DNA of 64,000 nucleotides from Candidatus Altimarinota bacterium (GCA_031375155.1 JANMHM010000012.1:2343-66342); one strand, 5' to 3'. Counted from the stretch's first letter, positions 173 through 56,057 are shown. Translations and numbers: made by a program. The notes: generated by a model from the letters alone, not told the origin.

Positions 173-216
173 CCTGTCATTTCGACCGAAGCAAAGCGGA
201 GCGGAGAAATCTTGCT
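173..216. repeat. Hairpin repeat unit CCTGTCATTTCGA...GAGAAATCTTGC (intergenic copy)
   Basis: It shares a 12-nt left end and a 12-nt right end with the copy at 18549-18578, and its left end with 27627 and 55708. Confidence 0.6.
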
Positions 217-250
217 CTGTTTTCTATTTTATATAATTTATTATATCCCC

Positions 251-775
251 ATGACCACACAAGATCCCAACAATACTGACCCAAAAACCGTCGAAGAAAC
301 TCTCGAAGAAATCGTCTCTGAGGAGGCAACACTCGACCCTAAGACTGATGCATCTGATGAAGTCACTCGACTTAAAGATGCCCTAGCGCGTGCTCAGGCG
401 GATTACCAGAACTTCGTCATGCGTACCGAGCGAGATAAGGCAGATATGGTCCACTACCTCTCTGCGAAGATGCTCATGCCACTTCTGACCCAAGTAGATA
501 ATCTCGAACGTGCCGTGAAACTCAAAGCATGAACTGAAGGTGATACTTTCGTCGATGGAGTCCGCTCAGTGCTCTCAAGTATGGAGAAATATCTCGAATC
601 TCAGGGAGTCGTCGCATTCACCTCTTTGGGTGCTGAGGTCGATCCTGACCGACACGATGTGATGACTGAGTGACCTGGTGAAGCTGGGAAGATCGTCACT
701 GAGTTCGAGAAATGATATATGCTTCGCGATCGCGTTCTCCGACATGCGAAGGTAGTGGTTGGGAATGGTAACTAA
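251..775 (+). CDS. grpE: Nucleotide exchange factor GrpE
   Basis: ORF 212-532 continues in the same frame through 3 TGA codons to TAA 773-775. The C-terminus reads ...GAEVDPDRHDVMTEGPGEAGKIVTEFEKGYMLRDRVLRHAKVVV, which is GrpE-like. Confidence 0.9.
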
Positions 776-784
776 TCTTTTTTT

Positions 785-1420
785 ATGAAAAAATATAGTA
801 TTCTTTTTTTAGTATTTCTCGGATGTATACCATCAGTTTTTGCTGGCACAGATACAGATGCGATATGTGCTGATGATATGCTTCAGGGACTCATCTACAG
901 AAATATATCAGTAAAATATCCAAATGAGGAAGTAGAGGTAAGTAGAATATGGAAACAAATGCATTCTCTGGGCGTCATGGAAGGTCCTATCGATCCCAAT
1001 GAGCACTATAGTCTCTACTATGTAGTAAATGTACGACAGGGCACTCATTATTCGCGGTCAGAGCTATACTCCTATAATTGTAAGTCAAAGGCAGTAAAAA
1101 AACTACTTTCTCTCCCTATTGATCACAAGAGTGTAGATTATTATCAGGTGGATTATATGAATGATTCTAACCTCATAGTCACAGGACGAGTACCCTGATT
1201 GACAGAGTGATCACCAGAAGTTACTGTAGGATATAATGTGGTGAAGAATAAGAAATTTTTTACTCTCAAAAATACTCCCGCCCTATTTCCTGATGGGGCT
1301 GTATCTGGATTTGTCTCGTGAAAAGAAGCATGGTATATCTATTTTGATAATTCGAACTACTCTGGTATATCATCCCTTTTTCGTATAGATAAAAAGACTA
1401 AAAAAATAACTAAACTCTAA
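785..1420 (+). CDS. Secreted hypothetical protein
   Basis: Signal peptide MKKYSILFLVFLGCIPSVFAG. The frame continues through 3 TGA codons to TAA 1418-1420. Confidence 0.6.
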
Positions 1421-1421
1421 T

Positions 1422-2384
1422 ATGCTCCCAAAACTTCTCGATAGCCGACTCCGTACCATCCTCGGTGAGGAGTATGATGGTGTGATGACTGCTTTTTCTC
1501 TGGAACGAAAATGATCTTTTCGTATCAATATGCTCAACTGAGATGGAAGCGCTGTCATGAAAGAGCTCGCAGAAAAGTGAATTGCAGTCGAGAAATTCAC
1601 AGGATTCCTGCCTCCGCAGGAATGACGAGCGACTGAGGTATATCTTTTCGATAAGACTCACGAGTATGCTATGAAGGGAACACGAGCATTCTATGATGGA
1701 CTTATCTATCTCCAGTCACTCTCCTCACTCCTTCCAGCGCTCGTCCTCGATCCAAAATCAGGAGAATCTATCCTCGATGTGTGTGCGGCTCCCGGATCCA
1801 AGACGACACAGATCGCTATGATGATGGAAAATACAGGAAAAATCGTCGCCCTCGAGCAAAACCAGATCCGCTATGATAAACTCATACATAACTGTAAGCT
1901 CCAGTGAGCGACGATCGTGGGATGACAGAAGCTCGATGCACGACACTATTTCGATCGTACTCCAGAAGAGGTTTTTGATCGTATCCTCTTCGACGCTCCA
2001 TGTAGTGCTGAGGGCCGCATATCTCTGACGAATGAGAAGACCTATGGCTTCTGGTCGCTCGAGAACATACAGAAGAAAGCAGAACTCCAGTATGAGCTTC
2101 TCACCCTTGCATTCTCAGCATTGAAAAAATGAGGAACACTCGTCTACTCCACCTGTACCCTCGCTCCCGAGGAGAACGAGTGAGTCATCTCTGACTTCCT
2201 CGAGGAGACTCCGAGCGCTTCTCTCGAACCGATCGATATAGGACTTTCCGACAAGCCATGGTGGAAGCGCGGTATCCAGAAATTCGGAAAGACAGAGTAC
2301 TCTGAAGAACTCCAGAAAGCCGTACGCATACTGCCTGGAGCGGAGACGGAGGGGTTTTTCGTGGTGAAGATCGTGAAAAAATAG
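1422..2384 (+). CDS. RsmB/RsmF (NOL1/NOP2/Sun) family RNA m5C methyltransferase
   Basis: One frame from ATG 1422 to TAG 2382, with several in-frame TGA. Motifs DVCAAPGSKT, FDAPCSAEG and YSTCTLAPEENE. Confidence 0.8.
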
Positions 2385-2386
2385 AT

Positions 2387-2782
2387 ATGTTCCTTCGATT
2401 TATCACATCATTCATTGACGACGATGGAGAAAAGAAAATAGGAGTATTTCAGGCTATGTACTATTTGCGGAGTAAAGATGCTTTTCTTTATGGGGATGCA
2501 GAAAAAATCAATGAACTCAGAAACTGGTTTGATCAATATCTTGAACCACCGACACAATTTACTAAAAGAAGGACAAGCAAAGAGACTGGCACTGCAGTAT
2601 CATGGTATCATGACAGTGCAAAAGAACACATCGCCAAAATGTATGAGATGTCTCGTATCCTTGAACGATACGGCATCATCGTCTCAGTCGTGAAACGGGA
2701 AGATCCTGGATATATCGTCTATGAAGATGAGTATCAGGTAGCGGCTATACCGTATCGAGAAGATCGAGAGAAGGTTATATAA
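2387..2782 (+). CDS. Hypothetical protein
   Basis: Uninterrupted 131-aa ORF, tightly packed after the methyltransferase gene. Confidence 0.5.
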   Translation: MFLRFITSFIDDDGEKKIGVFQAMYYLRSKDAFLYGDAEKINELRNWFDQYLEPPTQFTKRRTSKETGTAVSWYHDSAKEHIAKMYEMSRILERYGIIVSVVKREDPGYIVYEDEYQVAAIPYREDREKVI

Positions 2783-2944
2783 ATCCCCTATTTTTATAAC
2801 AATTTAGGATCTAGACTAACACAAATTTTTCTATCCGAGATTCTCGAATATTTACAAAAATCATAAAAAATATATACTATGGAAGTTTTAATATAGAAGT
2901 TTTTTGAATACGTATTCTTTCTATATAGCTTACTATTTTTCTAT

Positions 2945-3796
2945 ATGCCTCGTCTTCTCATCACCTGTTTCCTCATCTCTGCAATTGGTATCGGGACTTT
3001 CTACTTTTTCACGCATACGACTATGACTTCTCCAGAATCTCTTACTCCCACTCTTTCACAGAGCGTTGCTCGGAATACCAGAACTATCGCTGTCAGTGGC
3101 TACGCCGAACTCCCCATCGAAAATGATACACTTCTCTCCTTTACCATCTACTATGGTGATAAAAAACAGGAAGATACTGGTCCTGCGAAGATCATAGAGC
3201 TCCAGAAAGCCCTCGCGCCATATTATCTTTCGGGAGTGACGCTCAGTATCGGAAAGATAGAGAAGCGTGGAGCGATACCGACATCGAGTACTCAAGTGTC
3301 AAAAAAAGAAGTGGTAGGAGATGTCGTATTCGAGCCAGAACCAAATACCATAGATACCCCAGATGGTACTATTCCGATAAGATGAGCTTGGTATCATGGG
3401 AATGGTGGTACTGGAGATCTGCAGTCAGTACAGGAGATTACCCTCCTCCTCCCTACAGAGTTCGATAGCGCAAAGAGAGGAGAAATAGAGGGAATTATAA
3501 AAAATATTTTTGCCTGAGCTGTCTCGACGGGAGTCTCTATCCGAGTCAAGAGTATCACGAGAAAAAACGATACTGTCAGTACGGCGCTTCGAGAAATAGC
3601 CCTTGCAGATGCTCGGAAAAATGCTGAAGGTATAGCACTTCTCCTCTGAGGAAGTCTAGGAGATGTCATCACATATGCTGAAGGAGGATCAGAGACAGCA
3701 GTATACCAGACGATAGCCTCACAGTATCCCAATCCTCTAGAACCACAGAAATACTTCCTCACAGTACAGATGGTCTATGAGCTCGCCTCAAAGTAG
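2945..3796 (+). CDS. Membrane-anchored SIMPL/DUF541-like protein
   Basis: N-terminal TM segment. ORF 2945-3385 continues through 3 TGA codons to TAG 3794. The C-terminal ...ARKNAEGIALLLGGSLGDVITYAEGG resembles the BP26/SIMPL family. Confidence 0.5.
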
Positions 3797-3877
3797 ATAT
3801 AAAATATATCTTAAATTTGCATCATAATAAAAAATATGATACCATATATTCACTTATTCTTTAACTTATATAAGTAT

Positions 3878-4288
3878 ATGGGACTTCTCGAAAAAAGAGC
3901 TTTTCAAGCATTTCTGGATACAGATGGAAAAAATCTCATGAATGAGATCAATACACTCGCAGGATTCACGGTCGAGTTCGATATCTTAGGGGATACTCTC
4001 ATGAAAGATGATCGTATCGATCTTTATACTGAGGGATTCACGAAGGTATACTTCACTCCTATTATCGAAGCTCTGAAAGTCATCACTGTCGATGATATGG
4101 GAAAGAAGGCACTGAAAGACACACTCAAAAAAATAGTAATGAAGAATGAGAAGGATGTGACCTCGGGTGACTACGCTTATACATTCGCTGATGGGGTCCT
4201 TACAGTGGATCACAATCCATTTACGAATATCGATAACATTGATGTACGAACAAAGGCCCTCATAGCATGTCTCTCGAAAGGAATGTAA
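3878..4288 (+). CDS. Hypothetical protein
   Basis: ORF 3836-4288. The internal ATG 3878 (MGLLEKRAF) is the preferred start. Confidence 0.45.
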   Translation: MGLLEKRAFQAFLDTDGKNLMNEINTLAGFTVEFDILGDTLMKDDRIDLYTEGFTKVYFTPIIEALKVITVDDMGKKALKDTLKKIVMKNEKDVTSGDYAYTFADGVLTVDHNPFTNIDNIDVRTKALIACLSKGM

Positions 4289-4300
4289 TCTTTCTCTTTT

Positions 4301-4522
4301 ATGCCAAATATCCCTTGCCAATCTTGCCTTACAGAATATCCCACTTCATGGAACTGGTATATCTGTGATACGTGTAGTTTCAGAGTATGTTCTCCTTGCC
4401 TCTCAAAGCATACAGGAAAATATGGGAATGGAGGATTCAAGTGCAGTCAGTGTATGTTTGGTCATATGCAGTCATCTCAAGGGCTCAAACCCCAGATTAC
4501 TATGCCCCTAAAGGAAGAGTAA
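4301..4522 (+). CDS. Small zinc-ribbon protein with four CxxC pairs
   Basis: 73-aa ORF with CQSC, CDTC, CSPC and CSQC. Confidence 0.5.
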   Translation: MPNIPCQSCLTEYPTSWNWYICDTCSFRVCSPCLSKHTGKYGNGGFKCSQCMFGHMQSSQGLKPQITMPLKEE

Positions 4523-4541
4523 ATCTCTCTCGATATACTAT

Positions 4542-4575
4542 AAAAATATACCTCTAAATTTAGAGGTATATTTTT
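4542..4575. terminator. Bidirectional rho-independent terminator
   Basis: AAAAATATACCTCTAAATTTAGAGGTATATTTTT sits between convergent genes and overlaps the rsmA 3' end. Confidence 0.6.
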
Positions 4576-5471
4576 ATCCAATCCTCCTTCCTCACCGCCT
4601 CTGCCCGCACTTTCTCATCGTACCCACATTCTGTGAGCCATTTTTTCACTTCCTCGATATCGTAGTGACTTCACTTCAGATTGGAGAGGAGTGTTTTGCG
4701 TGGGTGGGTGAATGCTACTCTCCAGAGGGCGAGGAGTTTTTCTTCCCCGATTCGGTCACGAGATTTCTTCACCGAGAACTTCACCACGATAGAGTCCACT
4801 TTCGGTGCTGGGTCAAACGAAGCTCGCCCTACATACCGCACGATCTCGATATCTTTGCACGCGAGCTCCATAGCGAGGGAGAGATAGGAGTAGTGCGGTT
4901 TTTTCGCGCGTCAGGCAAGGATTTTTTCTCCTACTTCCTCCTGCATCATGATCACCATGGCTTCAGGTGGTGTAAGCCTCCTTTGTAAAGGAGGTGCCGA
5001 GGTACGAGGCGGAGGATTTTGCTCAGAAATCAAATCCCCCCTTCCCCCCTTTACAAAGGGGGCTTCGGGATACAAAAAATGAAATAATATAGGACTCGTG
5101 ATATAGTACGGGATATTCGCGATGACCGAGTAGTCGTCATATGGGGGAGTGAACTGGAGGATGTCCTCATGGTGGATGGCTATCGGAGTCGTCTTTACGA
5201 GATTATTTTCCTCTCCTTGTATCACTGGTGCGACTTCATCGCCCATATATCGTTCATCGAGGATCTCGATCATATCAGGATCGAGCTCGACGAGGTCGAG
5301 TGTGAGGGGATGATGCGAGAGGATATATTCGGTGAGTGCTCCATACCCAGGTCCGACTTCGATCACATGCCTACCTGCGAGCTCTATGGAGTGGGCGATA
5401 TCTCTGAGCGCCTCCTCGTCGATGAGGAAGTTTTGTCCGAGGGATTTTTTGGCTTTTATAGTTTTTTGCAT
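4560..5471 (-). CDS. rsmA: 16S rRNA (adenine1518/1519-N6)-dimethyltransferase RsmA/KsgA
   Basis: ORFs 4911-5471 and 4671-4871 are in one frame joined by TGA, with stop TAA at 4560. Motifs SLGQNFL, VIEVGPGYGALT, ANIPYYITSPIL and FDPAPKVDS. Confidence 0.9.
4968..5060. mobile_element. MITE-like palindromic element inserted in frame in rsmA
   Basis: 18-nt termini CCTCCTTTGTAAAGGAGG (4977-4994) and CCCCCTTTACAAAGGGGG (5045-5062) are inverted copies. Direct repeats GGCTTCAGG (4959) and GGCTTCGGG (5061) flank it, 102 nt apart. Confidence 0.6.
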
Positions 5472-5488
5472 AGTTTTTATAAATTGTC

Positions 5489-5517
5489 TTGACAGAGAGA
5501 GAGTTTCGTGATAAACT
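5489..5517 (+). promoter_or_regulatory. Sigma70-like promoter (TTGACA-17-TAAACT)
   Basis: TTGACA at 5489-5494, 17-nt spacer, TAAACT at 5512-5517. Confidence 0.45.
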
Positions 5518-17267: not shown

Positions 17268-17867
17268 ATGAAAATCTGCGTGTGGGATACAGAGACTACA
17301 GGATTCGCGACAAAATGAGGAGACCTCGCTCGACAGCCATATATCATCCAGTTTGCAGCGATCGAGTGAGAACTCGAGGGTGATGTATATCGTGAGATCG
17401 CACGTCACGATATCATGATCAAGCCATTTATATCGATCCCTTTCTGAGCTTCCCAAGTCAATGGTATCTATGATAAAGATGTCGCTGACTGTGAACCGAT
17501 GAATGTACATATAGATACCATACTACGTATACTCAATAATGCTGATCTCGTCTCAGGGCATAATATCGAATATGATGAAGATATCCTCTCCTACGAGCTC
17601 GCAAGACTCGGAAAAAGTGGAGAGTACTCTCCACAGAAGACGGTCTGTACTATGAGATCATCGACAGATTACTGTAAGCTCCAAGGGAGAGGATTTGCCT
17701 ATAAGCCGCCGAAACTTTCCGAGCTTCACAAACATCTTTTTTGAGAGTTTTTCGAATGAGCTCATGATGCTCTCATCGATGTAGAGGCGACTATGCGATG
17801 CTTCGTCGAGCTTGTCCGTAGATGAGTGATCGTCCCAGAGACATCGAATGTGATGCGATTGTTCTAG
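17268..17867 (+). CDS. DEDDh 3'-5' exonuclease (DnaQ/epsilon-like)
   Basis: Exo motifs VWDTETTG, GHNIEYDEDIL and HDALIDVEAT. Several in-frame TGA. TAG at 17865. Confidence 0.75.
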
Positions 17868-18997
17868 GAAAATTCTTCTATAATTCCACTTCCTATGACG
17901 ACGTCTTTATCGTAGATCACGCAGATCTGTCCTGGACTAATCGCGCGTTGGGGAACTGTAAACTGTAAACTGTAAATTATAGATTCAGCACCATTATCAT
18001 TTATAATTCATCATTTATAATTCATCATTACTTCCTGATCCTCCTGACGATACCGTATTTTCGCTCCATATCTTTTTCCTTCTTCTGGTAGAGTTCCTAC
18101 CCAATCTGTGAGAGTGCATTCACTTCCATAAAGCTCGAGCTCGTTCTCATTTCCTACGGTGATAGTGTTATTTTTCACATCCTTCGCTATTACGAAGAGT
18201 GCTGGTCATCATCCTACTTGTATACCCTTTCTTTGCCCGATAGTATAGGAATAGGCTCACTCGTGTTCCCCGATGACTATTCCAGATGTATCGAGGATGT
18301 TTCCTAGTTTTTTCGGGATCCTACGTTCGAGAAATTCTTTCATGCTCACTTTTCCGATAAAGCAGAGTCACTGTGAGTCTTTTCTTTCTGCATTGGGCAG
18401 TCATGCTTTTTTTGCTATGGCTCTGACTTCTGACTTGAGGAGGTGCCCTATCGGGAAGAGCGCATGTGAGATCTGGAATGGGGATAGTCGCGAGAGAAAG
18501 TATGATTGGTCTTTGTTTGGATCGACTCACTTCAGAAGTTGTATTTTTCTGTCATTTCGAGCTTGCGAGAAATCTTGCTCATGTATTCAGAGCAGGATGT
18601 CTCCTTTGTCGACATGACAGGTACGAGCATAGTGACCCATCGCGATACCATCATATCCGAGCGAGAGTGCTTCCTCGAGGAAGAGATCGAATTTTACGAG
18701 ATTGTTACAGAAAACGTCAGGATTGGGCGTCCTTCCCGCCTCATATTCACTATAGATGTATTCGATGATGCGTTTCTCATACTCTTCTCGATAATCGAAG
18801 GTGTAGAGAGGAAGATCGAGGTACTTTGCGACTTTTTTTGCCTCTTCGAGGTCTGCGAGCGTCGGACATGATTGTGGAAATTCCTCATCGAGATAATTGA
18901 TCATGAATCCACACGTCACTTCATGCCCATCTTGCTTGAGAAGATAGGCTGATACGGCAGAGTCTACTCATCATGAGAGTCATACGAGGATTTTCAT
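17864..18997 (-). CDS. mnmA: tRNA-specific 2-thiouridylase MnmA
   Basis: MKILVGLS-GG-VDSAV, with the PP-loop written TGA-TGA. Motifs [18 protein letters not shown] and [10 protein letters not shown]. One frame from 18997 down to TAG at 17864. Confidence 0.9.
18549..18578. repeat. Hairpin repeat unit CTGTCATTTCGA...GAGAAATCTTGC inside the mnmA coding frame
   Basis: Both 12-nt ends are identical to the intergenic copy at 173-216. It is translated as part of ...[19 protein letters not shown]... Confidence 0.6.
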
Positions 18998-21398: not shown

Positions 21399-21418
21399 TT
21401 TTTTGTTCTATTTCTCTG

Positions 21419-21567
21419 TTTTGTCATTTCGTAGTGACCCGTCCTCCGCAGAAGCCCTGCTTCGGAGGATGGAAACGGAGAAATCCCTTTTAAAGTCATC
21501 TTATAAGAAATATATAAAAATATCTCTTGAGAGAAAAATATAGGGATGCCTACGGCATGACAAAATG
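21419..21567. mobile_element. 149-bp MITE-like element in the ahpC 5' UTR
   Basis: Terminal inverted repeats TTTTGTCATTTCGTAG (21419) and CTACGGCATGACAAAA (21552-21567). 14 of 16 positions match after reverse-complementing. Confidence 0.55.
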
Positions 21568-25879: not shown

Positions 25880-27202
25880 ATGACTAAATATTTCATTATT
25901 TTCATTACATGTTTTTTTCTATTTGCTTGCTCAAATAAGGATATTCTTATAGATCAAGATTCTCATACTTCCTCATGAAAAGAGATGAATATATCTAGTA
26001 CGTGAACTATATCAGGAGAAATTTTGATAAAACGTATTATCCCAGTGGGAACAGATATTGAATATGATAACATATTTGAGCAGTTTGATGATGTAGCACA
26101 AAAATACCAAGATGCTCGTGAGAGACAGGATTATACGTTTTCGAGACAAAAACAGGATGCAGATATTATAGAAAAAAATAAAAATACCTTTATACGACTT
26201 TTTCAAGAAAATAAACTGCCTATTCTACATACTCTAAAAATAGGAGATAAAAAAGTATTTATATCAGCGCCATATGGTAATCATCCAGTAGAAATGTATC
26301 CAGAATGATATGTTTCTTGTTGATTTTACTTTAGTCCGTGAGGATCTTCCACGCATAACATCTGTATGGCATTTACAGATTCAATCGATACAAAACTCAC
26401 TACAGAAATGGTGTTTAGTAGTAGTAACGTAAATTATAATATAATTGCTACGGGCTCTTTCTTTATAAACCATTACTCAGATGGTGATATGTGTGCGAGC
26501 TGAGGTAATTACGCATTATTCGATGAAAATCTAGTAACCATAAGAAACTTAAATTATGTTAACAGTTCATGTAATTTTGTGAGGACATCCTTTTCAAAAA
26601 ATGGATATACTATAGAGTTTCTCGATTCTCACGCAGAAAATCCTTTCGCGACCAGCTCATGAGTCTATATTCCTCGCGCTTCCCATATGAGGATACTCAG
26701 TGGTAGTTTATTCACGGAAAGAGTACTCTATGAGTATGTCTCTCATAGAGTTTGATTCACTTTTGATCCTATAGAGAATACTTTGAATGGTGACACTTTT
26801 GATTTTACTTTTTGATGAAAAAACTTTTCCCTTACTAGAAAAGATATAGAATCTTTCGCGCCATCTTTTATTACCGATGCAAACAAACTTCGTTATCAAT
26901 TTACTCTTTCGGGAGAAGAATGAATTGATGAGGAAATATATGGTCGCTTAATGTGATCTATAACAACCCCAGAAAATAATCGTTATTATGATATTATTTC
27001 GAATATTTCTGTACTATCCTGCCAAAAGAACTCATCACAATACGACGATGAGCCTTATACGCTCTTAACTTATACATGAGGTGAAGTATTTCGATATAAA
27101 ATTGATACAAAATTTTGAAATAAGTGTCCTATTCCATATAATTTTTCTTTTAAAAGTAGTTCGGGAAATACATTTAATACAGCAGTAAAAATAGTCAGAT
27201 AA
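25880..27202 (+). CDS. Hypothetical lipoprotein (440 aa)
   Basis: Lipobox MTKYFIIFITCFFLFAC. I checked frame 2 line by line to TAA 27200. About 16 in-frame TGA. Confidence 0.65.
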
Positions 27203-27317
27203 TTATAGACAGATAAACTTGCATGAAATATGTAATTTATGATATAAAAAGTTTGATTTCTCGGAAAATCTGATATAATAATCTCGTCTTCCAAGATAAA
27301 GGAAATATATCTCCTTT

Positions 27318-27350
27318 GAAAAATCCCTCTGTCACGAGGGATTTTTCTTT
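27318..27350. terminator. Rho-independent terminator
   Basis: GAAAAATCCCTC-TGTCAC-GAGGGATTTTTCTTT. Confidence 0.6.
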
Positions 27351-27560
27351 GTTGATCTTAGCGTTTCCGCTTCACAACTCGCTCATAGATACCAGATATT
27401 TCTATCCGTATCAAGCGATGCTTCCAGTAGGGAAGTTCCAAGATAAACTTCTTCATAAGAAGAAATGGTTAGGAGATATATCTCCTTGCTCCTTCTGGAA
27501 GCAAGGAGCTTCGAAATTATATATTTTTCTTCGAAAAATCAACTTTACCAAAATACATCA

Positions 27561-27607
27561 TTCTGACCACAAAATTTGCTCACACTTTTCCCTTCAGGAA
27601 GCCATAG
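27561..27607 (+). repeat. 47-bp direct repeat, copy 1
   Basis: TTCTGACCACAAAATTTGCTCACACTTTTCCCTTCAGGAAGCCATAG, identical to 31718-31764. Confidence 0.9.
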
Positions 27608-27626
27608 CATACAAGTATCTAGTGTT

Positions 27627-27669
27627 CCTGTCATTTCGAGCGGAGATGATAAGTGAAGTCGAGAAATCC
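27627..27669. repeat. Hairpin repeat unit CCTGTCATTTCGAG...GTCGAGAAATCC
   Basis: Same termini family as the copies at 173, 18549 and 55708. Confidence 0.6.
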
Positions 27670-27731
27670 TTCTCTCAAAAAACTCCTCTTTCCTCGGTTT
27701 ATTATTTTAACTGCTCGAGTCAATAGTTAGT

Positions 27732-28991
27732 TTAGGGTGCGTTTTTTATCACGAGCTCTATGGCAGATATATAATCTTCTATAAAACTGTTTTCAAATAA
27801 GTCTAAAGATTGTGCCTCAGACACATAAATCTCTATAACTCCTATAGGATTTTCAGCTCTACCAAGAGGTATAATCATCACGCCATATATATTGTGATGA
27901 GACTTGATAGATGAAAATTGTTCGAATTCACCATGTTTTTCAGGCTCAACTATTTTGATACTTTTCCCTTGGTTGATAGTATATTCTGTAGCGCTTCCAC
28001 TATATTTTTTCTTTGTGCCAGTAGGGAGTATTTGTATTTTTCCCATAGCACCATCGAGAGTCATATTTCATTTCGTATCGCACTTCCAGAGCTGTACGAG
28101 TTCACTATCTGAGATAAAAAGGATCGATCGAAGAATGAAGTCATAAAAATTCATACGAGACCAGTACTGCCCTCGTCAGAACTTTATAATATCCTGTATA
28201 TAGTCAAGCTGTCTTTGTAGCAGTCCTATCTGAGTATAGGCATCGCGTATCTTCACACAGTGCTTATCAATTTGCTCTTCGATCTTGATCTGTCTAGTGA
28301 TATCTCGACCGATGAATAGGTATTCATGATCCTCCTCGTCTGTACTCATAGATGTGATAGCTCCAGAAATCATGAGAGCATTCCCAGTCTTATCTACAGC
28401 ATGAAATCGTATCTGACTGAAGTTATCTATGGGATGTGTGAAATTTTCGAGAGATTCTTCTGGAAATAGCAAGCTAATACCAGAAGCCTCTAGTTCAGAG
28501 AGTTTATATCAGAAGATTGTTTTTGCACCCTTATTCCATGAGGTTATTTTTCCATTTTGGGAATAAGAAAAAATACAATCACTTGCCATACCGACAGCTT
28601 GTGATATGGCTTTTTCTTTTTTCTGGAGTTTTTTATATTCCCTGAGATCTGTCATAATCCCTACAGTTCACCCTCCTGGTATAGGTGACCCGCTTAGAAG
28701 TACAGGTATCTTCTTTCTTGACTTACTAAGTAATATGCCCTCATAGTTCGATCTGACTCATTGCTTTCTTTTCGTGGTGTTTGTATTTCGTACTGTTGTA
28801 GCACTCTCTTTATCCCAGAAATCATATGACTCTCTTCCTATCATCTCATCGAGAGTATACTCCATAATTTCACAGAATTTCGGATTTGCAAAGATGGTTC
28901 GTTCGTGCTCATCTCATACCCACACTGCTTCATTCATCGTATCGATGAGATCACGGAAAAAATGTTCAGGAACTTTTTCTAAATGAGGCAT
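27732..28991 (-). CDS. PAS-PAS-GAF sensor protein with no recognisable output domain
   Basis: ATG (reverse complement) at 28989-28991 to TAA at 27732, one frame through about 7 TGA. PAS-like LIDTMNEAVWVGDEHERTIFANPKFCEIMEYTLDEMIG and AVGMASDCIFSYSQNGKITSWNKGAKTIFGY. GAF-like C-terminus. Confidence 0.65.
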
Positions 28992-32304: not shown

Positions 32305-32385
32305 AATTGTAAATGATAAATGTTAAATGATAAATTCATATACCATTCCTCATTTATAATTTATAACTTATAATTTATAATTTCT
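32305..32385 (+). promoter_or_regulatory. AT-rich imperfect intergenic hairpin/repeat region
   Basis: TGTAAATGATAAATGTTAAATGATAAAT faces ATTTATAATTTATAACTTATAATTTATAATTT. Confidence 0.3.
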
Positions 32386-32393
32386 GAAATATT

Positions 32394-32759
32394 ATGGCTC
32401 GTATCGCCGGTGTCAATCTCCCAGACGGGAAACATGCTGAAATCTCTCTTATGTATATATATGGAGTAGGACGTTCTCTCGCACAGAAGATACTTACGAA
32501 AGTAGGAATCGCCTGGAATAAAAAAATGGGTGAACTCACAGAAGCTGAGCTCGACCTTATCCGTGAAGAGCTCAAGGGCTTCATCATCGAAGGTGATCTC
32601 AGACGAGAAGTCTCATCGAATATCAAACGTCTCCAAGATATCGGATGTTACCGAGGATCCCGCCACAAGAAGCGACTCCCAGTCCGTGGTCAGCGTACGA
32701 AAACGAATGCTCGTACTCGAAAAGGAAAGGTTATGACCATCATGAATAAGAAAAAGTAG
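32394..32759 (+). CDS. rpsM: 30S ribosomal protein S13
   Basis: Intact ORF starting [10 protein letters not shown]. Confidence 0.95.
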
Positions 32760-38031: not shown

Positions 38032-38496
38032 ATGATCTCTCGCCGTCGTACTCGTGAATTTCTTCTCCAGTCTCTCTACTCTCGGCATGAGCTCGGAGAT
38101 GCATTTGTTCGCGAGAGCTTCATAGAGTCATATTTCGATGAGGAGAATGTCGCTCAAATCGACATGACGTATATCGATACCATGGAGAAAGCTATCCTGG
38201 CCCATGAAGCTGAGCTTATCGGTATCGTCTCGACACTTGCTCCGAAGTTCGAGCTCTCGACTATCCCTGTCATGCATATCATGATCATTATGATTGCCCT
38301 CACAGAGATGCTCTATGCATCATCTGCAGATACTCCCGAGGCAGTCTCGGTGAATGAGGCGATCGAGCTCGCTAAGCGCTTTTCTGATGATCAGGGAAGG
38401 ATGTTTATAAATTGAGCACTTTCTGCCTTCCTGAAGTGAAAAGAGAAAGTCATCGCAGAGAAAAAAGAAGTGGAGTTTCGGGTGTTTTCGAAGTAA
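38032..38496 (+). CDS. nusB: Transcription antitermination factor NusB
   Basis: MISRRRTREFLLQSLY... ORF 38032-38415 continues through 2 TGA to TAA 38494. Confidence 0.85.
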
Positions 38497-43585: not shown

Positions 43586-44224
43586 TTATATTTTTACAGT
43601 GCCTTCTAGATTCTCATAAGAACCATGAATAATCTTAACTCTTTCCAAAAGTTCATTTAAAGCCGAAGGTTTCTCTTCTCAGTGGAAATATCGAGCTGCA
43701 GGACATCCGACTCTTGGTGAAATCTGCGTTCCAGGGGTTCTGATATTTATAGCATCAGGTTTATTTCTTTCTAAAAACTCAATAGCACGAAATACCTCTA
43801 AAGGAAGCATAGCAAGCATACGAGTGATTTTTTTCCCTCAATTTTCTCCAACAGTCATCCTAGCAATCCGTACACCAGTTTTCCATCCTGCTCGCATACG
43901 TTGAGGTACATCAGCTATGAGAAATTGTTTAGTTTCTTCAGAAGCCTTCATATTGTCCAGTGTCCATGTGCGGTCAATAACTCAATATCCCCAATTGATG
44001 AGATCGTTATAGACAAGATCTTGGGTTCCCTATTCTCATCCTTGATATTTTTTTGCGTAAACTGTATCCCATTGACTCCAAACCTCAGGCGTAAAGATTT
44101 GTTTCAGAAAATCAGAGATTTCTATGTATGCTTTATATTTTTCCCCATCGCTTTTGAGAGGCCAATGTCTCAATAGCTCGGATAAATCTCTTGGCAGTTC
44201 ATGATGAAATGTGGCGCTAAGCAT
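43586..44224 (-). pseudogene. Hypothetical gene interrupted by an in-frame TAG (44030-44032)
   Basis: One minus frame from ATG 44222-44224 to TAA at 43586 is open except for a single TAG. Both halves look protein-like. Confidence 0.4.
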
Positions 44225-44312
44225 AATATTTATTATGATCAATAATTATATTTGTCAATCTTATTTCCCACTTTCCTTCCACTTTTCTCTGGAGTTATGC
44301 TATACTCCCTCT

Positions 44313-45233
44313 ATGATCCACCTCGAACCAAAAGACTATCCTCTCGATTTCTACTACCATCGTACTGCCTCAGCGACCTATAGAGAGTATCTCCATAGCT
44401 GTAAGCTCACGACATTCGATATCGACCACCCACCACAGTTTGCCTGGAAAAAACGTCTTTTCGGTGATGCATTTGGTATTATCAAGTATGAGCGTATCGA
44501 CGTCGAGCCGGATATCGAGTATCTAAAAAAAGTGACAGGACTCCGTCATGCCTTCGTCGTGTGGATACCGTACTCTCGTGTGGATATCAGTCGACCATGG
44601 AGATGACTTTGGCTGACGGATCACTTCGAAGAGACAGGATATGCGAAACTAGATTCTAGAGCACAGATTAGAGATTCTAGAATGGAACCACAGAGCATGG
44701 ATTGCCACGTGCCTCGCAATGACGGTACCAAAGAATCGTACCTCTCTTCTTGGAATGATCGGGCGAAACGTGCTCGTAAAAAATTCCTCGCATCAGGCTC
44801 GAGGATCGAGAGTGTGAAACCAGAGGTATTTGTCGAGGCATTTCGAACGACGAAAGTGAAACACTGGTACAAGAGTGCGTATATCAGCTACTATAAGCGC
44901 ATGGTTGCCATAGATGCGACGAAGATCCGTCAGTGGATCGCCTATGATAATACTGGAAAGGTGAGTGGAGGACTCGCGGTACATGATTTCGTAGAGGATC
45001 ACTCCGTTCACCTTGTTGCTTTTACCGACCAGAAAAGCTATCACTCTCAGCCAGGCACTGGACTCATAGATGAGTGGTTTCGGGAGTCGTATGAGCGTGG
45101 CTATAAATACCTCTCTTTCGATCAGTTACGAAATAAAAATGGTCCCAAAGATCAGAAGGGATACAGTGAATTTAAAGAAAGTTTTCTCACGGCACGACTC
45201 TCATTTCCGAAGGCATATTTCCGGTTTTTCTAA
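44313..45233 (+). CDS. FemAB-like / GNAT-fold acyl(aminoacyl)transferase, tentative
   Basis: ATG 44313. ORFs 44211-44606 and 44682-45233 are in the same frame joined by TGA. The C-terminal ...LVAFTDQKSYHSQPGTGLIDEWF... is GNAT/Fem-like. It lies next to the PBP gene. Confidence 0.45.
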
Positions 45234-45279
45234 GAGAAATATTTAGTGCTTTTTTCATCCTGTAAAGATCCTTATCAAA

Positions 45280-45365
45280 TTCACCTTATAAGAAATATAT
45301 GATTTCTTCCTTATAAGTATAAGTAAAAGAGATTCCTCCGCTTCGCTACGGAATGACAAAAAATC
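45280..45365. repeat. Relative of the 21419-21567 element
   Basis: Shares CTTATAAGAAATATAT and the terminus CTACGGAATGACAAAAAA with the ahpC-UTR element. Confidence 0.5.
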
Positions 45366-45368
45366 ACC

Positions 45369-47705
45369 TTAGGTTCCGTTATTTTTCGGGACTTTATAGT
45401 ATTCGAGGAGATACTGTGCGATCTCAGCGAAGAGTGCTGAAGATGTCGTCTCAGAGTATATATCTGACCGAGGACGATTGATCGAGACGATAAGGACAAA
45501 CTTGGGATTATTGGCTGGCGCATATCCCCCATATGAGGTGATCGTGTGACCGAGATCACTTCCGAGGATGCGGTTCTCGTATCATCCCTTCATAGGTATT
45601 TGCGATGTTCCTGTCTTTCCAGCGATCGTGTAGCCTGCGACTCATCATTTTTTCGCAAAACCATTTCGTACGCTATCGATGAGCATCGCAGTGACTTCTT
45701 TTGAGGTTTCTTCTTTTATCACTCTTCGAATCGGGGTCGGGATGGTATCGATTTTTTTGCCATCTGGATAGATGAGTGACTCGACGATATAGGGCTCCAT
45801 ATACACGCCGCCATTCGCGATCACAGAGTAGGCTGCAGCCATCTGGAGCATAGTGATATTGATCCCTTGGCCGAACGACATCGTGAAAAACTGTGTCCGA
45901 GACCATTTCTCATATGGGCTGATCTTTGCATAGTGCTCACCATCGAGAGTGATATTGCTCTTCGTCCCGAGACCGAAATCAGAGAGATATTTACTAAAGA
46001 GGGAAGGACCTATTTTTTGGATAATATCGATCATACCGACATTACATGACCAGTCGAGAGCATGGATATACGTATGCCTTCCTGAACATGTTGAAGATAC
46101 ATTTGATATTCTCCCCTTTTGTCATCAGCCATAGTCGAGCTCGACATATCACTTATCGTAGTAGGTATCATTGGGAGATATTTCTCCTGTATCTATACCT
46201 ATAGCGACAGTAAGTGCCTTAAATACTGATCCAGGTTCGTAGAGTGCCGTGATGATATCGTTGGTATAGACTCAGGCACCATATTTATTTTTGTACTTAT
46301 ACTTCGGTATTGCGAATGTCGCGATCTCATCATCACTCGCCTCTCGAAGCTTCAGTCGCTGTCCATCGATATTCGAGAAGAGTGTCCCGCTCTGCGTATC
46401 GATGACAAAAAGCGGGATACCAAAAAGCTCAAAACTGGGATTTCCATATGTAGCATAGTTTACCTTTTCCATATCATAGACATCGGTAAAGCTATTGGGA
46501 TCAAAATCTGGATAATTGACCATAGAAATGATCGCTCCTGTTTTTGGATCCATGACTATCACACTTCATTTATTTCCTCGAAATTTTTCTACAGCTCGCG
46601 CGAGGCGAGTCGATATTTCCTTTTGGATATTTCGATCTATTGTCAGCGCGACATCTACTCCACTTTTGAGCGAGACGAGCTCTTTCGATACGTATCATCC
46701 TATCGGTCTCCCGGCACTATCTTTGGTCACTCTTTGTGTCGGACTTTCTGCCTGGAGTGTATCCTGGAAGTAGCCCTCTATCCCATACTTTCCATCACCT
46801 ATACCATCGACAAATCCAGTGATCTGTCCTGTTACTTGGCGTTCTGGGTAGAATCGTACGAGGTTATCCTCGATTTTTATATAGGGAACAATAGAATTTT
46901 CCATCTGAAGCTGACCTCCTTTGATAGCGGTTCTTTCAGAGGTAAGCCTTTTTATCACCGCGTCACGCGTACTCACGCTCATTTTTCGGATGATTTCTAG
47001 GTGTTGCTTTTTTCGTATTTCGAGTTTCGGACTCACTGTCTTTATATCTACACCGAGTACGTCTGAGAGCTTCAGTGCGAGAGCAGGTCTATCTATTATT
47101 TTTGTAGGATTTACATAGAGATTATTCACGACAAAAAAGAGTGACTCGTCTTGCCATGCTATGATCCGCTCGATCTTATCTTCACTCAGGTTTTGGGAGA
47201 TTTCGACACTCTCTATAGGTGATTCTATCTTTCCAGTGAGATAGATTTTGATCCTATTTTTGAGCTCAGTGACGGTGATATCTTTCTCACTCGTGAGATC
47301 AGTACGGAGATAGGTACTCATATTTTCCAGACAAGGAGTCGTCGAATAGGTACAAAACTCTTCGAAAACGATATCAGAGAGAAATATAAGGAGCTTATCT
47401 CGGGATCACGTCTGTGATGGATCGATCGCGAGATTTCCGAGGTTGGTCGATACAGCGAGGGCTCACTTTAGCGATGCTTCTGATGAGTAGATCGTCCCTC
47501 GTGAGACAGGATTTCTCAGTATCATCGTCTGCTGATCGTAGGCGATCTTCTGATAAAAATCTCCATGGATCATCGTATAGTTAAATGTCGTAACCAAGAG
47601 AAAGAAAGCATAGAGAATTCCTATATACCAGGCCATCCCGATACGATCTAGCCGTTTGAAGTGATTATAGATGAGAGTGAGAATGTGTTCGAGTGAGATT
47701 TTCAT
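45369..47705 (-). CDS. Class B penicillin-binding protein (PBP2/FtsI-type transpeptidase), 778 aa
   Basis: Four ORF-track fragments lie in one frame. N-terminal TM, then SVFK (SxxK) and KTGT motifs. TAA at 45369. Confidence 0.85.
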
Positions 47706-50960: not shown

Positions 50961-51019
50961 GAGTAGAGAAGTTAATTGTTCGTATTATATACTAGAGAAG
51001 AATATACGCAAATGATTTT

Positions 51020-51790: not shown

Positions 51791-52107
51791 AAATTTGAGA
51801 ACTTAGGTTTTAGGATTGAGAACTTAGGATATGGAAAAATGGAGGGAAGGCAAGAGGAGAAAAGTAGAAAAAATGCAAAAAGTGAAAAAGTAGAAAAATA
51901 TGGGGTGGGGCATACTGGAAAATAAAAACTGCGATTCTTGTATACAAAAATTTCTAACAAATTTCTAACATTTCGGGTAGATTTTTCTAAAATACTTTGA
52001 CTCTACTCTCTCTCTCGATACTATTCGAAACGCTTCTGGAAATCTTTCTAGTGAGCCAGGAGAACATCCTGACTTCATCATACCAAAATATATAGGAATA
52101 GCTTCAA

Positions 52108-52954
52108 ATGAAAGCGTTTTTCACTAAAACTGTGACTGCGGCAGTCCTCGCAGGTATTTCTTCGGCATCCTTTGCTTTTGGCACTGGCAATATGCCAGCT
52201 GTTCCGAGCGGATGGACACTGAAGGAATCATATACGTCAGGTGCACTGAACAATATTCTCGTCTACCAAAAGACAGGCGAATCTACGTATATGCAGGTTG
52301 TGGACATCAAGAATGGGGGAAGACTTTCTTTCTTCAATCAGTCCAAGACGGGCGTAAGTCCTTTTCAATTCGGCATTGATACCATGAATAATTGGTGGAA
52401 CATGCTCCTTGACAAGAAAACCATGGTCAATGGACAGTTCTTTGCCTACGTGAATGCGTTCTACGTGCCACTAAACCCAACAACACTCTCATTTGGTGTC
52501 AAAGCCAATGGAAGTCTGTTGACGCCGGGAGCAGATAACTCTGCATATCCTGTAAGCTCAATGAGGCAAATCGAAATAACAAGCGGTGTTGGTGCAACTG
52601 TCCTCGCATGGAATCAGGCTCGCCTGAGTCCAGGGGGGTCTTCAGCCCAAAACATCATGGTTGGACTTCATCCATCACCTTCCGTTGTTACGAATAAGAG
52701 TCCTACTTCGAACATCGGTCGTATGCTGATCTGTACAAAGCCTCAAAGCGGTGCTGCATGGGTATATATCCTGTCCGCAGGAAGTCTCCAGCAACAAACG
52801 GCTCTCAACTATGGTGTCTCTTGGGGTTGTACTGAACCCTCAACTGTTGATGATGGATGGATCTGGTTCAGCTCAACTGAAGACGGTGAACTCAGGCACA
52901 CTGCTCGCAGGCGATCGCTCACTCCCGCAAGTGATTGCTGTCTACAACCAATAA
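52108..52954 (+). pseudogene. Secreted protein gene, GC-richer than its surroundings, apparently frameshifted near 52810-52830 (possible phosphodiester-glycosidase-like C-terminus)
   Basis: Signal peptide MKAFFTKTVTAAVLAGISSASFA. Frame 1 decays into ...WIWFSSTEDGELRHTARRRS. Frame 2 gives ...LLMMDGSGSAQLKTVNSGTLLAGDRSLPQVIAVYNQ and stops at 52952, just before the terminator. Confidence 0.45.
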
Positions 52955-52958
52955 ACTC

Positions 52959-52986
52959 AAGGGGGGACTAGTCCCCCCACTTTTTT
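52959..52986. terminator. GC-rich rho-independent terminator
   Basis: GGGGGGACTAGTCCCCCC followed by ACTTTTTT. Confidence 0.7.
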
Positions 52987-53000
52987 AATCAAATCAAATT

Positions 53001-53447
53001 ATGACATCCTACTTTATGACGCCAGTAATTGAACCTTCAAGTTTCTGATGAGTTATACTCTCATATGCTTATTCTTTGCAATATCATATTTATTGGTGGA
53101 TAGATACTTTCTTTTTTGAATGACCATTTCCATGGTATTGACTATATCTAGGCTCTCTTTTTGCCATTCTCATCGGTATAATTATATATTCTGTTATTTA
53201 TAGTATCCTATATTTTTTCTTCTCGAAGAAAATCCCTCAATCATCTCTTTCTAAGAAGTTAAAGTATAATAATTGGATAAATATCTTTATCCGTCTCATT
53301 CCATTGGGGTATATCATAACCAGTATCCATAGTATATCTTCTTGAAAATCATTTAAAGTAGGTTTATTGTACGAGGTAATCTATACTATCAGCACTGGAA
53401 TTATTTATTTTATAGGATACACGATTTACTACTACTATTTTCTTTAA
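53001..53447 (+). CDS. Hypothetical multi-pass membrane protein (148 aa)
   Basis: ATG 53001 to TAA 53445 with 5 TGA. Very hydrophobic and Tyr/Ile-rich. Confidence 0.45.
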
Positions 53448-53453
53448 AAACCT

Positions 53454-54317
53454 ATGAAGTCTTCCTGTATTTTCACCACATTGACATTTGCCACTGGAGT
53501 ATGACTCCTGGCATATCACTCAAATACCTCCAAACAAGAGATAACATCTACTGAAATAGCACCAGTATCTGCGAGAGTACAACATACAGTTGTAAAGTCA
53601 CTTTCATGAAATTTCCTTTCTGGAAGTCGACCAGATATGGCGTATTTTACAGATCAAGAATTACTTAGGACTATAGTATCAAAATCCTGGAATGCACAAT
53701 ACTATGAAGACTACGGAGCAAATGGTAAGACAAATATCGATATAGAAAGATATCGTGTAAGTATCGAAGGAATCGAAGAACTTCTCAGGGATAATCCATG
53801 ACTTCTCGATCGTATAGCTCACGAAATATGGTGGCAAAAATATCTCGCATGAGAGCTTGCACCAGAATATGTCCTTTTGATAGAAATGAGATCATTTCTC
53901 GCTGTGGAGAAATTTGCCTCCGAGGAGCCAGAGATATATGTAAGTATTTTAACAAAGAGCCCGAGATGGGAGACAGAATGAAGGGAAAGTGCTCAAGCAC
54001 GAGAAAATATCCTCAACCAAACTCTTATAAAAGTGAATATGACAGAAAGCAATCCATGAGTTGTGGAACGCATGACCGCATATGGCTATAACTATGATGA
54101 TATATACAGAGTAGCTTCTATAGAAGAAAGAAATTTCTATGATACACTCGATACTATACAAGCACTCGAAGATCCGAATCTTGGATATCCTGAAGTACGA
54201 GAGCAATTCTTTGCTTCAGATACTGGAAAAGCATATCTTGCCGGAAAAATAGATCCTCTTTATGCTTATCAATACTTCAATGAACTCATGATCAAGTATA
54301 CTGAAAATATACACTAA
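53454..54317 (+). CDS. Hypothetical protein with an N-terminal signal/anchor (287 aa)
   Basis: ATG 53454, same frame as ORF 54063-54317, several TGA. Confidence 0.5.
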
Positions 54318-54320
54318 ATT

Positions 54321-55205
54321 ATGAAGATTTCACATTCTCTTCTAAAAACCATCTGTTTTTTTACTTTTCTAATAGCAATTTTAGTATGATTCTGTTGGTA
54401 TAAATGTCTCACAAAAGAAACATCCTATATCACGAATATACGACCTTCTGTAGTTGATACTTACCCTACGACCACATGGTGAGAAGTATGAGCTAATCCA
54501 GAGTCTACTCGATATACTCGGGAGATGATCAAAAAAGATCCGTACTGGATTTTCTCAAGCCCTTCTGAGAATGAAATCCGTATCAATATCCCAAGATTTC
54601 TCGAACAGACTACCACTGAGAGACGCGAATTCATAGAGAAAATTGCCCACATGGACAGGTATGACCTCACGCTCCATATATCCTGATCTGAACCTATAGA
54701 TATAGCAAAGTTTATTCATTTCATGGAAGATATAGATAGATATAAGTCGATCACATTTATATTTTATGATATTCCTGAGAATTATTATGATATATTCGAC
54801 CGATTCCACTCGAACTTCGATATGAAAAATATCTCTTTTATTTTCTATGGTCAAATGTTCCCAGATGGTTTTCACCTCAATGCTTTTATAAAACATCTTT
54901 CCGAGATGGTGATGAGATCCCTCCTAGAAAATCAGAAACTTGATACACTTTCTTTAAGTTTTGAAGAGACCGCAGATTTCGCATTTATTCTCGATGAAGA
55001 AGCAGAAAATGCATTGAAAAAGATACTTATAAAAAATCTCATCTTGGAACGTATAACAATAAATGCATCGCCAATGTGACTATGAGATGATTCCAAATGA
55101 AAGGCTCGAGTAGAAAAATTCTTTCGAGAAGCTCGAGCAGAAACTATAGAAATAGACAGAGTTGGGCAAAAGAAAGACGGAAGTATTATACTTTATGGAT
55201 TTTAA
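54321..55205 (+). CDS. Hypothetical membrane-anchored protein (294 aa)
   Basis: ATG 54321, same frame as ORF 54723-55079. Continues through TGA to TAA 55203. Confidence 0.5.
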
Positions 55206-56057
55206 CTATGATTTCTGTACAGAGTACATCCACTCCTCATTCCCCGCCTCCCCAATGACACTCGATTTCTCTTTTTGCAAAATTTCGCAATTATGTAGTT
55301 CGAGAAAATCTTCCCACTCTTTTTGCCTTTTCTGTACGATTTTCTCATTTTTCACGACTCAGGTTTTCCGGAGATGTTCTCGTCCGACCTCGAACTGCGG
55401 TTTCCAGAGAAGGATGATATGAGTCTGAGTATCTGCGAATCTCAGTATGCTTGGCAAGATTCCCTGGAGTGATATAAATGAAGCATCACAGACGATGATG
55501 TCGTAGTGTGTACTGCTCTCGAACTCTCGTATATCAGTCTGCTCATAGCTGGTAACTCGAATATCGTTTCTGATGCTTTCATGAAGTTGGGCGGTTCCTA
55601 CATCCACTGCATCTACATGACTCGCTCATCGATCCAGGAGGACCTGCGTGAATCATCCTGTCGACGATCCGACATCGAGACAATACATTCATTCGATCTG
55701 CAATGATTCCTGTCATTTCGAAGTATGAGAAAGCTTCCTCTGTGTACCTTCTAGCAAGATGTCTTCATCCTTCGTAGTACTACGGAGAACAGGTCCTATC
55801 ATCGATACGACAGGCACTAATAATTCTCATTGTTGAATTCACAATTGCTCAAGAAATCCATCGAGCTTCCCTGCACTGCGAGAGACCCAATGAAGACTCT
55901 TGTCTTCAATTAAATTCACAATATCTGATTCACTCACACCGAACGATACTTTAGTGATATTGTTTCCGTTCACTTCTGCGAGTCCAGATTCGATATATTG
56001 CTTCGCTTTGTTTCTTGTGAAGCCATATTTCTCACTAATGAAGAGATCAAGTCGCAT
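55206..56057 (-). CDS. tlyA: TlyA-family rRNA 2'-O-methyltransferase with an S4 domain
   Basis: ORFs 55839-56057 and 55359-55607 are in one frame. Motifs WVSRSAGKL, LDVGSSTGGFTQVLLDRGA and KPQFEVG. TAG at 55206. Confidence 0.85.
55708..55815. mobile_element. 108-bp MITE-like element inserted in frame in tlyA
   Basis: Termini CCTGTCATTTCGA (55708) and TCGATACGACAGG (55803-55815) are inverted repeats (11 of 13 match). TCATT pentamers at 55689 and 55827 lie 138 nt (46 codons) apart. Confidence 0.6.

Follow-up and report, generated by a model that had tools for sequence, protein, structure and literature searches.

What are the short palindromic repeats that recur between and inside genes in a 64,000-nucleotide (nt) stretch of DNA from Candidatus Altimarinota bacterium (GCA_031375155.1 JANMHM010000012.1:2343-66342; "the window" below means this whole stretch), and how do they come to lie in frame within conserved genes? 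An earlier reading, made from the sequence only, had described a dispersed family of short hairpin repeats found both between and inside genes. Covariance-model scans, covariation within the stem and the preserved frame of the genic copies all bear out such a family, and they point to an identity for it: the repeats probably belong to the CGTC-tagged superfamily of repetitive extragenic palindromes (REPs), being elements of the same kind as the dRS3/NTS repeats of Neisseria, RPE-4 and RPE-6 of Rickettsia, and the Ssn-related motifs. This is a known hairpin class, already described in other phyla, for which the Gracilibacteria are a new host lineage. This case stands out by the large share of copies that lie in frame in genes, by the repeated use of a single mnmA loop, by expanded hairpin loops and by recoded TGA codons inside copies.

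The repeats were searched for with two covariance models, R1, trained on nine window copies, and R2, trained solely on copies from other Gracilibacteria genomes and hence a test independent of the window. The sample of relatives consisted of 1.12 Mb of DNA around mnmA from 80 other Gracilibacteria, about 1% of those genomes. On the window, R2 recovered 10 units at E values from 1e-6 to 3e-3, and an eleventh (c13) at E 0.056; in the DNA of the relatives the covariance-model scans found 52 further copies, and R1 gave 46 copies there at E ≤ 1. Within the window, the pattern YGTCAT followed by a perfect stem of ≥5 bp starting at its A and then by C occurs 11 times, as against 2.6 ± 1.7 (maximum 10) in 300 dinucleotide shuffles, and GTCATTTCG occurs six times where 0.9 would be expected. 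The covariance model, the comparison with composition and the frame check of genic copies had all been proposed in the sequence-only reading, and each came out in favor of the family. A literature search by raw sequence strings returned unrelated primer matches only.

Every copy cited in that reading is present, at the same position or 1–2 nt away, with the correction that the spacer of the copy at 173-216 is 17 nt long rather than 18. Its figure of about eight copies holds for loci, of which there are eight, but not for units: there are 10 clear and 2 degenerate ones, and four had been overlooked, at 18587-18623 (−), 21536-21566 (−), 45249-45279 (+, degenerate) and 55749-55816 (−, degenerate). 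Because these four are partner copies, four of the loci are inverted dimers, the other four being single units. The dimer halves, the invariant unpaired GTC tag with its C after the palindrome, and the existence of the family in other phyla had not been seen. The copies are as follows.

171..220, plus strand (c1): single unit, CCTGTC-ATTTC...GAAAT-CTTGCTC; 35.8 bits with R2; intergenic, 20 nt past the stop of the upstream gene and ~40 nt ahead of grpE.
1594..1631, minus strand (c7): single canonical unit, CGTC ATTCCTGC GGAG GCAGGAAT CC; in frame within the rsmB/NOL1-like gene 1422-2384 (+), encoding GFLPPQEG with TGA as Gly.
18546..18583, plus strand (c2): left unit of a head-to-head dimer within mnmA (17864-18997, −); 37.1 bits with R2.
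18587..18623, minus strand (c10): inverted partner of c2, inside mnmA; the c2/c10 dimer (~18549-18620) measures 72 nt and encodes a 23-residue peptide.
21418..21494, plus strand (c3): long-type unit, intergenic left half of a head-to-head heterodimer; its loop carries a nested 45-nt GC-rich hairpin (21434-21478), and the whole unit folds with a z score of -3.9.
21536..21566, minus strand (c9): short-type unit, TTTTGTC ATGCC GTA GGCAT CCC, right half of the dimer with c3; 33 bits.
27625..27677, plus strand (c4): single unit with a 19-nt loop, between the convergent genes 25880-27202 (+) and 27732-28991 (−).
44691..44728, minus strand (c6): single unit, CGTC ATTGCGAG GCAC GTGGCAAT CCA; 23.4 bits with R2, E 0.0027; in frame in the open reading frame (ORF) 44124-45233 (+), which has no Pfam match, encoding DCHVPRND.
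45249..45279, plus strand (c13): degenerate short-type unit, head-to-head partner of c5; 18.1 bits, E 0.056.
45322..45362, minus strand (c5): long-type unit with a GCGAAGC mini-hairpin, ~7-12 nt past the stop of the PBP-like gene 45369-47705 (−) and in sense orientation to it.
55707..55743, plus strand (c8): unit with one stem mismatch, within tlyA (55206-56057, −); 23.5 bits with R2.
55749..55816, minus strand (c12): degenerate inverted partner of c8, CTGTCGTATCGA...GACATCTTGCT; the whole c8/c12 insertion in tlyA (~55704-55835) amounts to 44 amino acids (aa).

The ORF 27223-27726, which covers c4, is without a Pfam match and is probably not a gene. The c13/c5 dimer is situated between convergent genes, and its c13 spacer has the motif CTTATAAG in common with the c3/c9 dimer; the combination of a long and a short unit seen in c3/c9 occurs also in L003, L005 and L006 among the relatives' loci.

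The anatomy of the unit is simple and strictly kept. An unpaired tag, (C/T)GTC, is followed by a palindrome that begins with AT and ends with AT, and then by C; the window copies all have G-T-C-A-T at their 5′ side and a C directly behind the palindrome, and C or T precedes the GTC in 10/10 clear units. The stem itself varies (ATTTC/GAAAT, ATTCC/GGAAT, ATTGC/GCAAT and ATGTC/GACAT), with its first two pairs, A-T and T-A, present in every clear window unit but c8, where the first pair is mismatched. The same holds for the 46 copies from other genomes, in which pair 1 is A-T in 45/46 and pair 2 T-A in 45/46, while pair 3 is U-A in 39, C-G in 4 and G-C in 2, and pair 4 is C-G in 24, G-C in 10 and U-A in 9. 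Among these foreign copies 81% of cells are paired, compared with 68% in shuffles, and 35 cells are changed on both sides, compared with 9.1 in shuffles, a signal that is lost when the partner column is slid by 1–3 positions. The pairing of ATTTC with GAAAT, proposed in the sequence-only reading, is thereby backed by compensatory changes.

Beyond this core the units differ in stem, loop and tail. Many copies have five Watson-Crick pairs, then a 5′-GA/3′-AG step, then one further pair, an arrangement found in c2, c10 and c4; c7 has 8 perfect pairs, c6 has 8 positions including 2 mismatches, and c9 has 5 bp. Loops measure 4 nt in c2, c6 and c7, 3 nt in c9 and c10, and 7–45 nt in c1, c3, c4, c5 and c8. 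GC-GNA-GC, which as DNA makes a mini-hairpin of very high stability, closes several copies. In the tail only the first C is invariant: CCA is found in c6 only, the others having CTT, CCT, CCC or CTC, and CCAG tails are frequent in the related genomes. All four window dimers are head-to-head, with the tags outermost; the mnmA dimer (c2/c10) folds as one long DNA hairpin with a z score of -5.2, and the dimer at 21418-21566 (c3/c9) has a fold z score of -3.7. A small ribozyme, or a pseudoknot between the 3′ flank and the loop, was considered and rejected, the apparent second helix being explained by tail-to-tail pairing of dimer partners.

Some loops hold inserts of their own. In addition to the 45-nt hairpin in c3, L003:829-904 and L004:4645-4727 share another insert of ~45 nt, and a further case is L047:14044-14114; hairpin loops may themselves be insertion targets. 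Dense arrays of 3–5 CGTC units of mixed subtypes lie 3′ of mnmA at L008:6240-6630 and L017:11190-11460, and these resemble clusters described in Neisseria and Wolbachia.

The family prefers intergenic space, with a large minority of copies in genes. In the window and related loci together, a sample biased towards mnmA, 62% of units are intergenic compared with 25% of random positions, and 24/63 units lie in ORFs of ≥150 aa compared with 75% of random positions. Intergenic copies sit close behind genes, as c1 and c5 illustrate. Within the window, roughly half of the repeats had been placed in coding frames, and by loci this is exact: four of the eight (mnmA, tlyA, the rsmB-like gene and ORF 44124-45233) are genic, and in all four the repeat is in frame. 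The proteins are lengthened accordingly, the window MnmA being 18 residues longer at the dimer position than solved MnmA structures, TlyA having a 44-residue block without counterpart in solved TlyA proteins, and the rsmB-like product being 8 aa longer through c7.

The genetic code of the host matters at this point. Under the standard bacterial code long ORFs take up 68% of the window; if TGA is read as sense, they take up 98%. At 4/4 genic loci one tag or more appears in the mRNA as ...AATGAC, and in c7 and c8 the TGA of the tag falls in frame, where it has to stand for glycine, a reading that this genetic code alone allows.

Comparison with relatives shows whole copies present at some orthologous sites and missing at others. 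The eight residues encoded by c7 are present in the RsmB-like proteins P0241 and P0242 (80–88% identity) and absent from P0243 and P0245 (84–86%). In the DNA of a close relative, the metagenome-assembled genome (MAG) GCA_964449265.1 (L204), the gap at c7 is of 24 nt, which corresponds to GTC + 8 + 4 + 8 + C. This relative also has an empty mnmA loop (L005) and is without the copy upstream of grpE. Neither c7 nor the mnmA dimers show a visible target-site duplication.

The mnmA loop is where repeated gain is best seen. Across 75 Gracilibacteria loci the segment from GHYA to KDQSYF is empty, with 24 residues, in 21 and has up to 109 residues in others. CGTC dimers fill the loop in 8 or more relatives; those in the window and in L006, L007, L010, L013, L041, L064 and L073 begin exactly with (C/T)GTCAT and end with ATGAC. 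Their offsets and frames differ, as would be expected if insertion had happened repeatedly. The loop, between GHYAR and LLKGxD (window ~18540-18640; loci L002-L081), is a hot spot in which short repeats of at least four unrelated families are found across Gracilibacteria, and in protein P0042 it contains a whole DUF559 (PF04480) endonuclease domain flanked by such repeats. A distinct in-frame palindromic element lies at 4974-5065 in the ksgA/rsmA ORF 4560-5471 (−); it has 21-nt inverted arms, AAGCCTCCTTTGTAAAGGAGG and CCCCCTTTACAAAGGGGGCTT, each arm a mini-hairpin, and encodes PFVKGGRGDLISEQNPPPRTSAPPLQRRL. A related type of peptide, PKIREAGRGVL, fills the mnmA loop in L004.

It is informative to consider these features in light of a recently described nuclease. 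SsnA, a 94-residue single-domain GIY-YIG nuclease, binds and cuts the Neisseria NTS as single-stranded DNA only; binding depends above all on the C that follows the palindrome, three upstream nucleotides matter for cleavage, and ssn genes are typically flanked by such motifs in an arrangement that resembles an insertion sequence (PMC11893778). The bases critical for Ssn, the upstream GTC and the downstream C, are exactly those that are invariant in the window. Furthermore, a metagenome scan for the exact window variant, CTGTCATTTCGA...GAGAAATCYT, located it in at least 120 stretches on contigs of 33–64% GC, with the consensus CTGTCATTTCGAGCGAAGCGAGAAATCTT. Among the 120 loci listed, four have small single-domain GIY-YIG genes beside CGTC hairpins:

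L154: GIY-YIG gene with hairpins on both sides.
L165: GIY-YIG gene with a dimer ~30 nt upstream.
L102: GIY-YIG gene with a hairpin directly downstream.
L120: GIY-YIG gene with a hairpin pair ~760 nt upstream.

This gene family comprises at least about 8,000 candidate proteins at E ≤ 1e-5, those listed having 90–157 residues. TGA is apparently a sense codon in few or none of the metagenome stretches; being mostly not TGA-sense, these loci are therefore uninformative on Ssn in Gracilibacteria.

From these observations a likely mechanism can be proposed. The unit is an oriented hairpin formed on single-stranded DNA, and a dimer can fold as one long hairpin. The repeats behave as non-autonomous elements, gained and lost whole, either as a unit or as a head-to-head dimer bounded by its tags, and they survive where they do little harm, just 3′ of genes (some of these copies may act as weak terminators) and, when in frame, in protein surface loops. 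By analogy with Neisseria, the enzyme that recognizes the hairpin on single-stranded DNA would most likely be a small Ssn-family nuclease of GIY-YIG type, which would bind through the palindrome and the following C and cut a few nucleotides upstream of the GTC. The window contains no nuclease or transposase gene, and the mobilizing enzyme is therefore inferred; an Ssn-type enzyme may act on the window copies and generate new ones.

Several observations weigh against assigning the window repeats to the CGTC-tagged REPs and against the proposed part played by Ssn. Single units, c7 excepted, have no unusual stability as RNA or DNA when compared with shuffles; most stems have five Watson-Crick pairs only; and half of the window units have loops of 7–45 nt, where published families have 4–5 nt. 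The search pattern for Ssn-related motifs (SRM), HGTCWYN(0-2)YYVSBRHN(0-5)WNVSBRGN(0-2)RNCYNB, has 0 matches in the window as against 0.26 per shuffle, and of its 8 matches in the 1.12 Mb of relatives 3–4 are real copies. Likewise, neither the window nor the sampled 1% or so of the 80 Gracilibacteria genomes yielded a gene for an Ssn-like GIY-YIG enzyme, a nuclease of another type or a transposase, and the GIY-YIG genes that adjoin the motif elsewhere are presumptive members of the Ssn family (cd10448). The lone GIY-YIG gene of the mnmA regions, in the distant relative L052, was set aside as of UPF0213/YhbQ type and without flanking repeats.

The alternative that survives best sees the repeats first of all as RNA elements, which would have been selected as intrinsic terminators or as hairpins that stabilize the 3′ ends of mRNAs. 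Placement speaks for this: c1 and c5 lie from a few to 20 nt past a stop codon, in sense orientation and with T-rich tails, c5 and c9 are flagged as terminator-like in a terminator scan, and c1 occupies the exact position at which a canonical terminator, CCGCTTCGGCGG and then six T, is found in GCA_964449265.1 (L204). In addition, a head-to-head dimer between convergent genes would give both transcripts a sense hairpin and a T run, the intergenic excess noted above would be accounted for, and the same placement was noted for the published families (PMC3733652). Yet four loci are genic, and a terminator there would do harm; single units as RNA are no better folded than shuffles (z scores of -0.3 to +0.9 for most); the most conserved positions, the GTC of the unpaired tag and the C that follows the stem, are ones that a terminator does not need; and Rfam covariance models gave no match at gathering thresholds and nothing on the copies at E ≤ 10. 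We regard a primary RNA role as possible but unlikely. Most likely, termination is a secondary use of some copies and not the family's reason to exist.

A different enzyme could be invoked, namely a REP-associated tyrosine transposase (RAYT) of the IS200/IS605-type Y1 kind, which would move the window repeats as REPs or REPINs in the manner of the GTAG REPs known from Pseudomonas and E. coli. The design is indeed the same, with tagged hairpins and head-to-head doublets that fold into long structures, and copies are gained and lost between relatives. Against this, the tag is CGTC or TGTC instead of GTAG, no transposase was found with the CGTC families (PMC3733652), and an IS200 TnpA query had no match in the window or in the 80 Gracilibacteria loci, so that we consider a RAYT quite improbable. 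An IS200/IS605-type TnpA ORF at L126:2000-2368 lies ~3 kb from a CGTC hairpin on a metagenome contig of an unrelated organism, and this proximity is probably coincidental.

Still less probable is that the repeats are miniature inverted-repeat transposable elements (MITEs), derived from a DDE transposon with TGTCAT ends, with incidental hairpins. The dimers do look like elements of 70–150 nt with terminal inverted repeats, CCTGTCATNTCGA...TCGANATGACAGG or TTTTGTCAT...ATGACAAAA, but single 24-nt units insert alone (net 24 nt at c7), the c7 and mnmA sites are without visible target-site duplication, a transposase ORF is not present, and the covariation of the stem signifies selection or templating for pairing within one end. 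Chance or compositional similarity is refuted: GTCAT alone is not enriched (180 observed, 169 expected) and the candidate in nusB at 38137-38173 (17.8 bits with the window-trained model), dropped after R2 did not recover it, is probably a chance match, but ten units at E ≤ 0.003 from a foreign-trained model, the excess of GTCATTTCG, the covariation, and clean presence and absence at orthologous sites are not to be had by chance.

A wider reading, in which the hairpins, the recoded genome and the mobilizing enzyme are taken jointly, can be put forward tentatively and is as a whole rather doubtful. According to it, the Gracilibacteria hairpins, chiefly as head-to-head dimers, would be actively mobile and would repeatedly colonize surface loops of essential enzymes, the mnmA loop having been filled independently many times, also by unrelated repeat families. 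The reassignment of UGA to glycine would remove the only built-in stop of the tag (ATGAC read as TGA); a frame that is lethal in standard-code hosts would be opened, and recoded genomes might as a result be unusually permissive to intragenic spread. Such spread might occur without a resident Ssn nuclease, for example with an enzyme that comes from a phage or from the host bacterium.

Whatever the fate of that reading, the repeats have uses for further work. The clean filled and empty sites, which involve a net 24-nt unit or dimers of 69–72 nt running from (C/T)GTCAT to ATGAC, delimit the inserted DNA and could guide work on how the class spreads. Annotators should note that the repeats encode peptides such as ..ARND, ..PRND and GFLPPQEG in Gracilibacteria proteins and that contig breaks occur at them. 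TGA read as glycine inside copies suggests a link between a change of genetic code and tolerance of selfish DNA.

As to the organism, the nearest matches to the MnmA and RsmB-like proteins of the window are proteins of Candidatus Gracilibacteria MAGs, at 70–88% identity. No close representative of the lineage is found among 185,579 species genomes (top MnmA identity 72%), and proteins identical to those of the window, among them ribosomal proteins free of TGA codons, occur in public contigs from one sequencing run only, SRR20217215. In an independent assembly of that run, Logan contig L203 ends at window position 18575, within c2, a break that is expected because the repeat is dispersed. No tRNAs were found in the window, and a weak, sub-threshold Rfam match to the alpha-operon ribosome binding site leader lies at 32325-32426 (+), just 5′ of rpsM (24.7 bits, E 0.14).

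How, then, do the repeats compare with systems already known? The closest counterparts are the families CGTC-1 to -4 (Di Nocera, De Gregorio & Rocco 2013, BMC Genomics 14:522, PMC3733652). According to that study, the tag is often TGTC, with CCTC also allowed, the first two stem pairs are almost invariably AT, the stem has 8–9 bp, the loop 4–5 nt with exceptions in some hosts, and the 3-nt tail is mostly CCA; head-to-head dimers with the tags outside predominate, copies lie 3′ of ORFs with some intragenic, and no associated transposase was found. The superfamily includes Neisseria dRS3 and Rickettsia RPE-4 and RPE-6, and its reported hosts are Proteobacteria, Chlorobi, Bacteroidetes, Spirochaetes and Thermotogae (PMC3733652). 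The window repeats share the unpaired CGTC/TGTC tag, the A-T and T-A opening pairs, the short tail that starts with C, head-to-head homo- and heterodimers, placement behind genes, occasional in-frame genic copies and the lack of a transposase nearby, and c7 and c6 share the 8 + 4 + 8 layout of CGTC-1. They differ in that their host is a Gracilibacterium (Patescibacteria, with TGA as Gly), outside the listed phyla, in their stems, which often have five Watson-Crick pairs and a tandem G.A step, in their loops of 7–45 nt, some with a nested hairpin, in their CTT, CCT or CCC tails in place of CCA, and in a far larger intragenic share of loci. The class is hereby extended to the Patescibacteria (candidate phyla radiation, CPR), whose genomes are very small, host-dependent and recoded, in line with published work in which symbionts carry the most of these repeats.

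GTAG REPs and REPINs are more distant relatives in design. Like the window repeats, they are built of tagged hairpins, probably replicate as inverted doublets and persist vertically with turnover; they differ in the tag (GTAG, not (C/T)GTC) and in their dedicated Y1 transposase, of which no equivalent was found here. The palindromic elements of Rickettsia (RPEs; Ogata et al., via Di Nocera 2013) are likewise in-frame palindromic inserts in housekeeping genes of a host-dependent bacterium with a reduced genome, and the window has inserts of this type, of 8–44 aa and in loops, at sites in conserved proteins that are empty in orthologues (18 aa in mnmA, 44 aa in tlyA, 8 aa in the rsmB-like gene). 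This is a likeness in kind; the lineage and genetic code are different, and RPE-1 is longer and unrelated. Finally, the NTS of Neisseria, CGTCATTCCCGCGMAVGCGGGAATCYRG (Chenal 2025, Nat Commun 16:2388, PMC11893778), is rarely genic (2% in N. meningitidis), as against half of the window loci. It nonetheless shares the core CGTCATTCC..GGAATCC, as well as the conserved GTC upstream and C downstream of the palindrome and an abundance in host-dependent bacteria; c7 deviates from the NTS consensus at few stem and loop positions, and small single-domain GIY-YIG genes of other organisms are flanked by the T-variant that the window also has.

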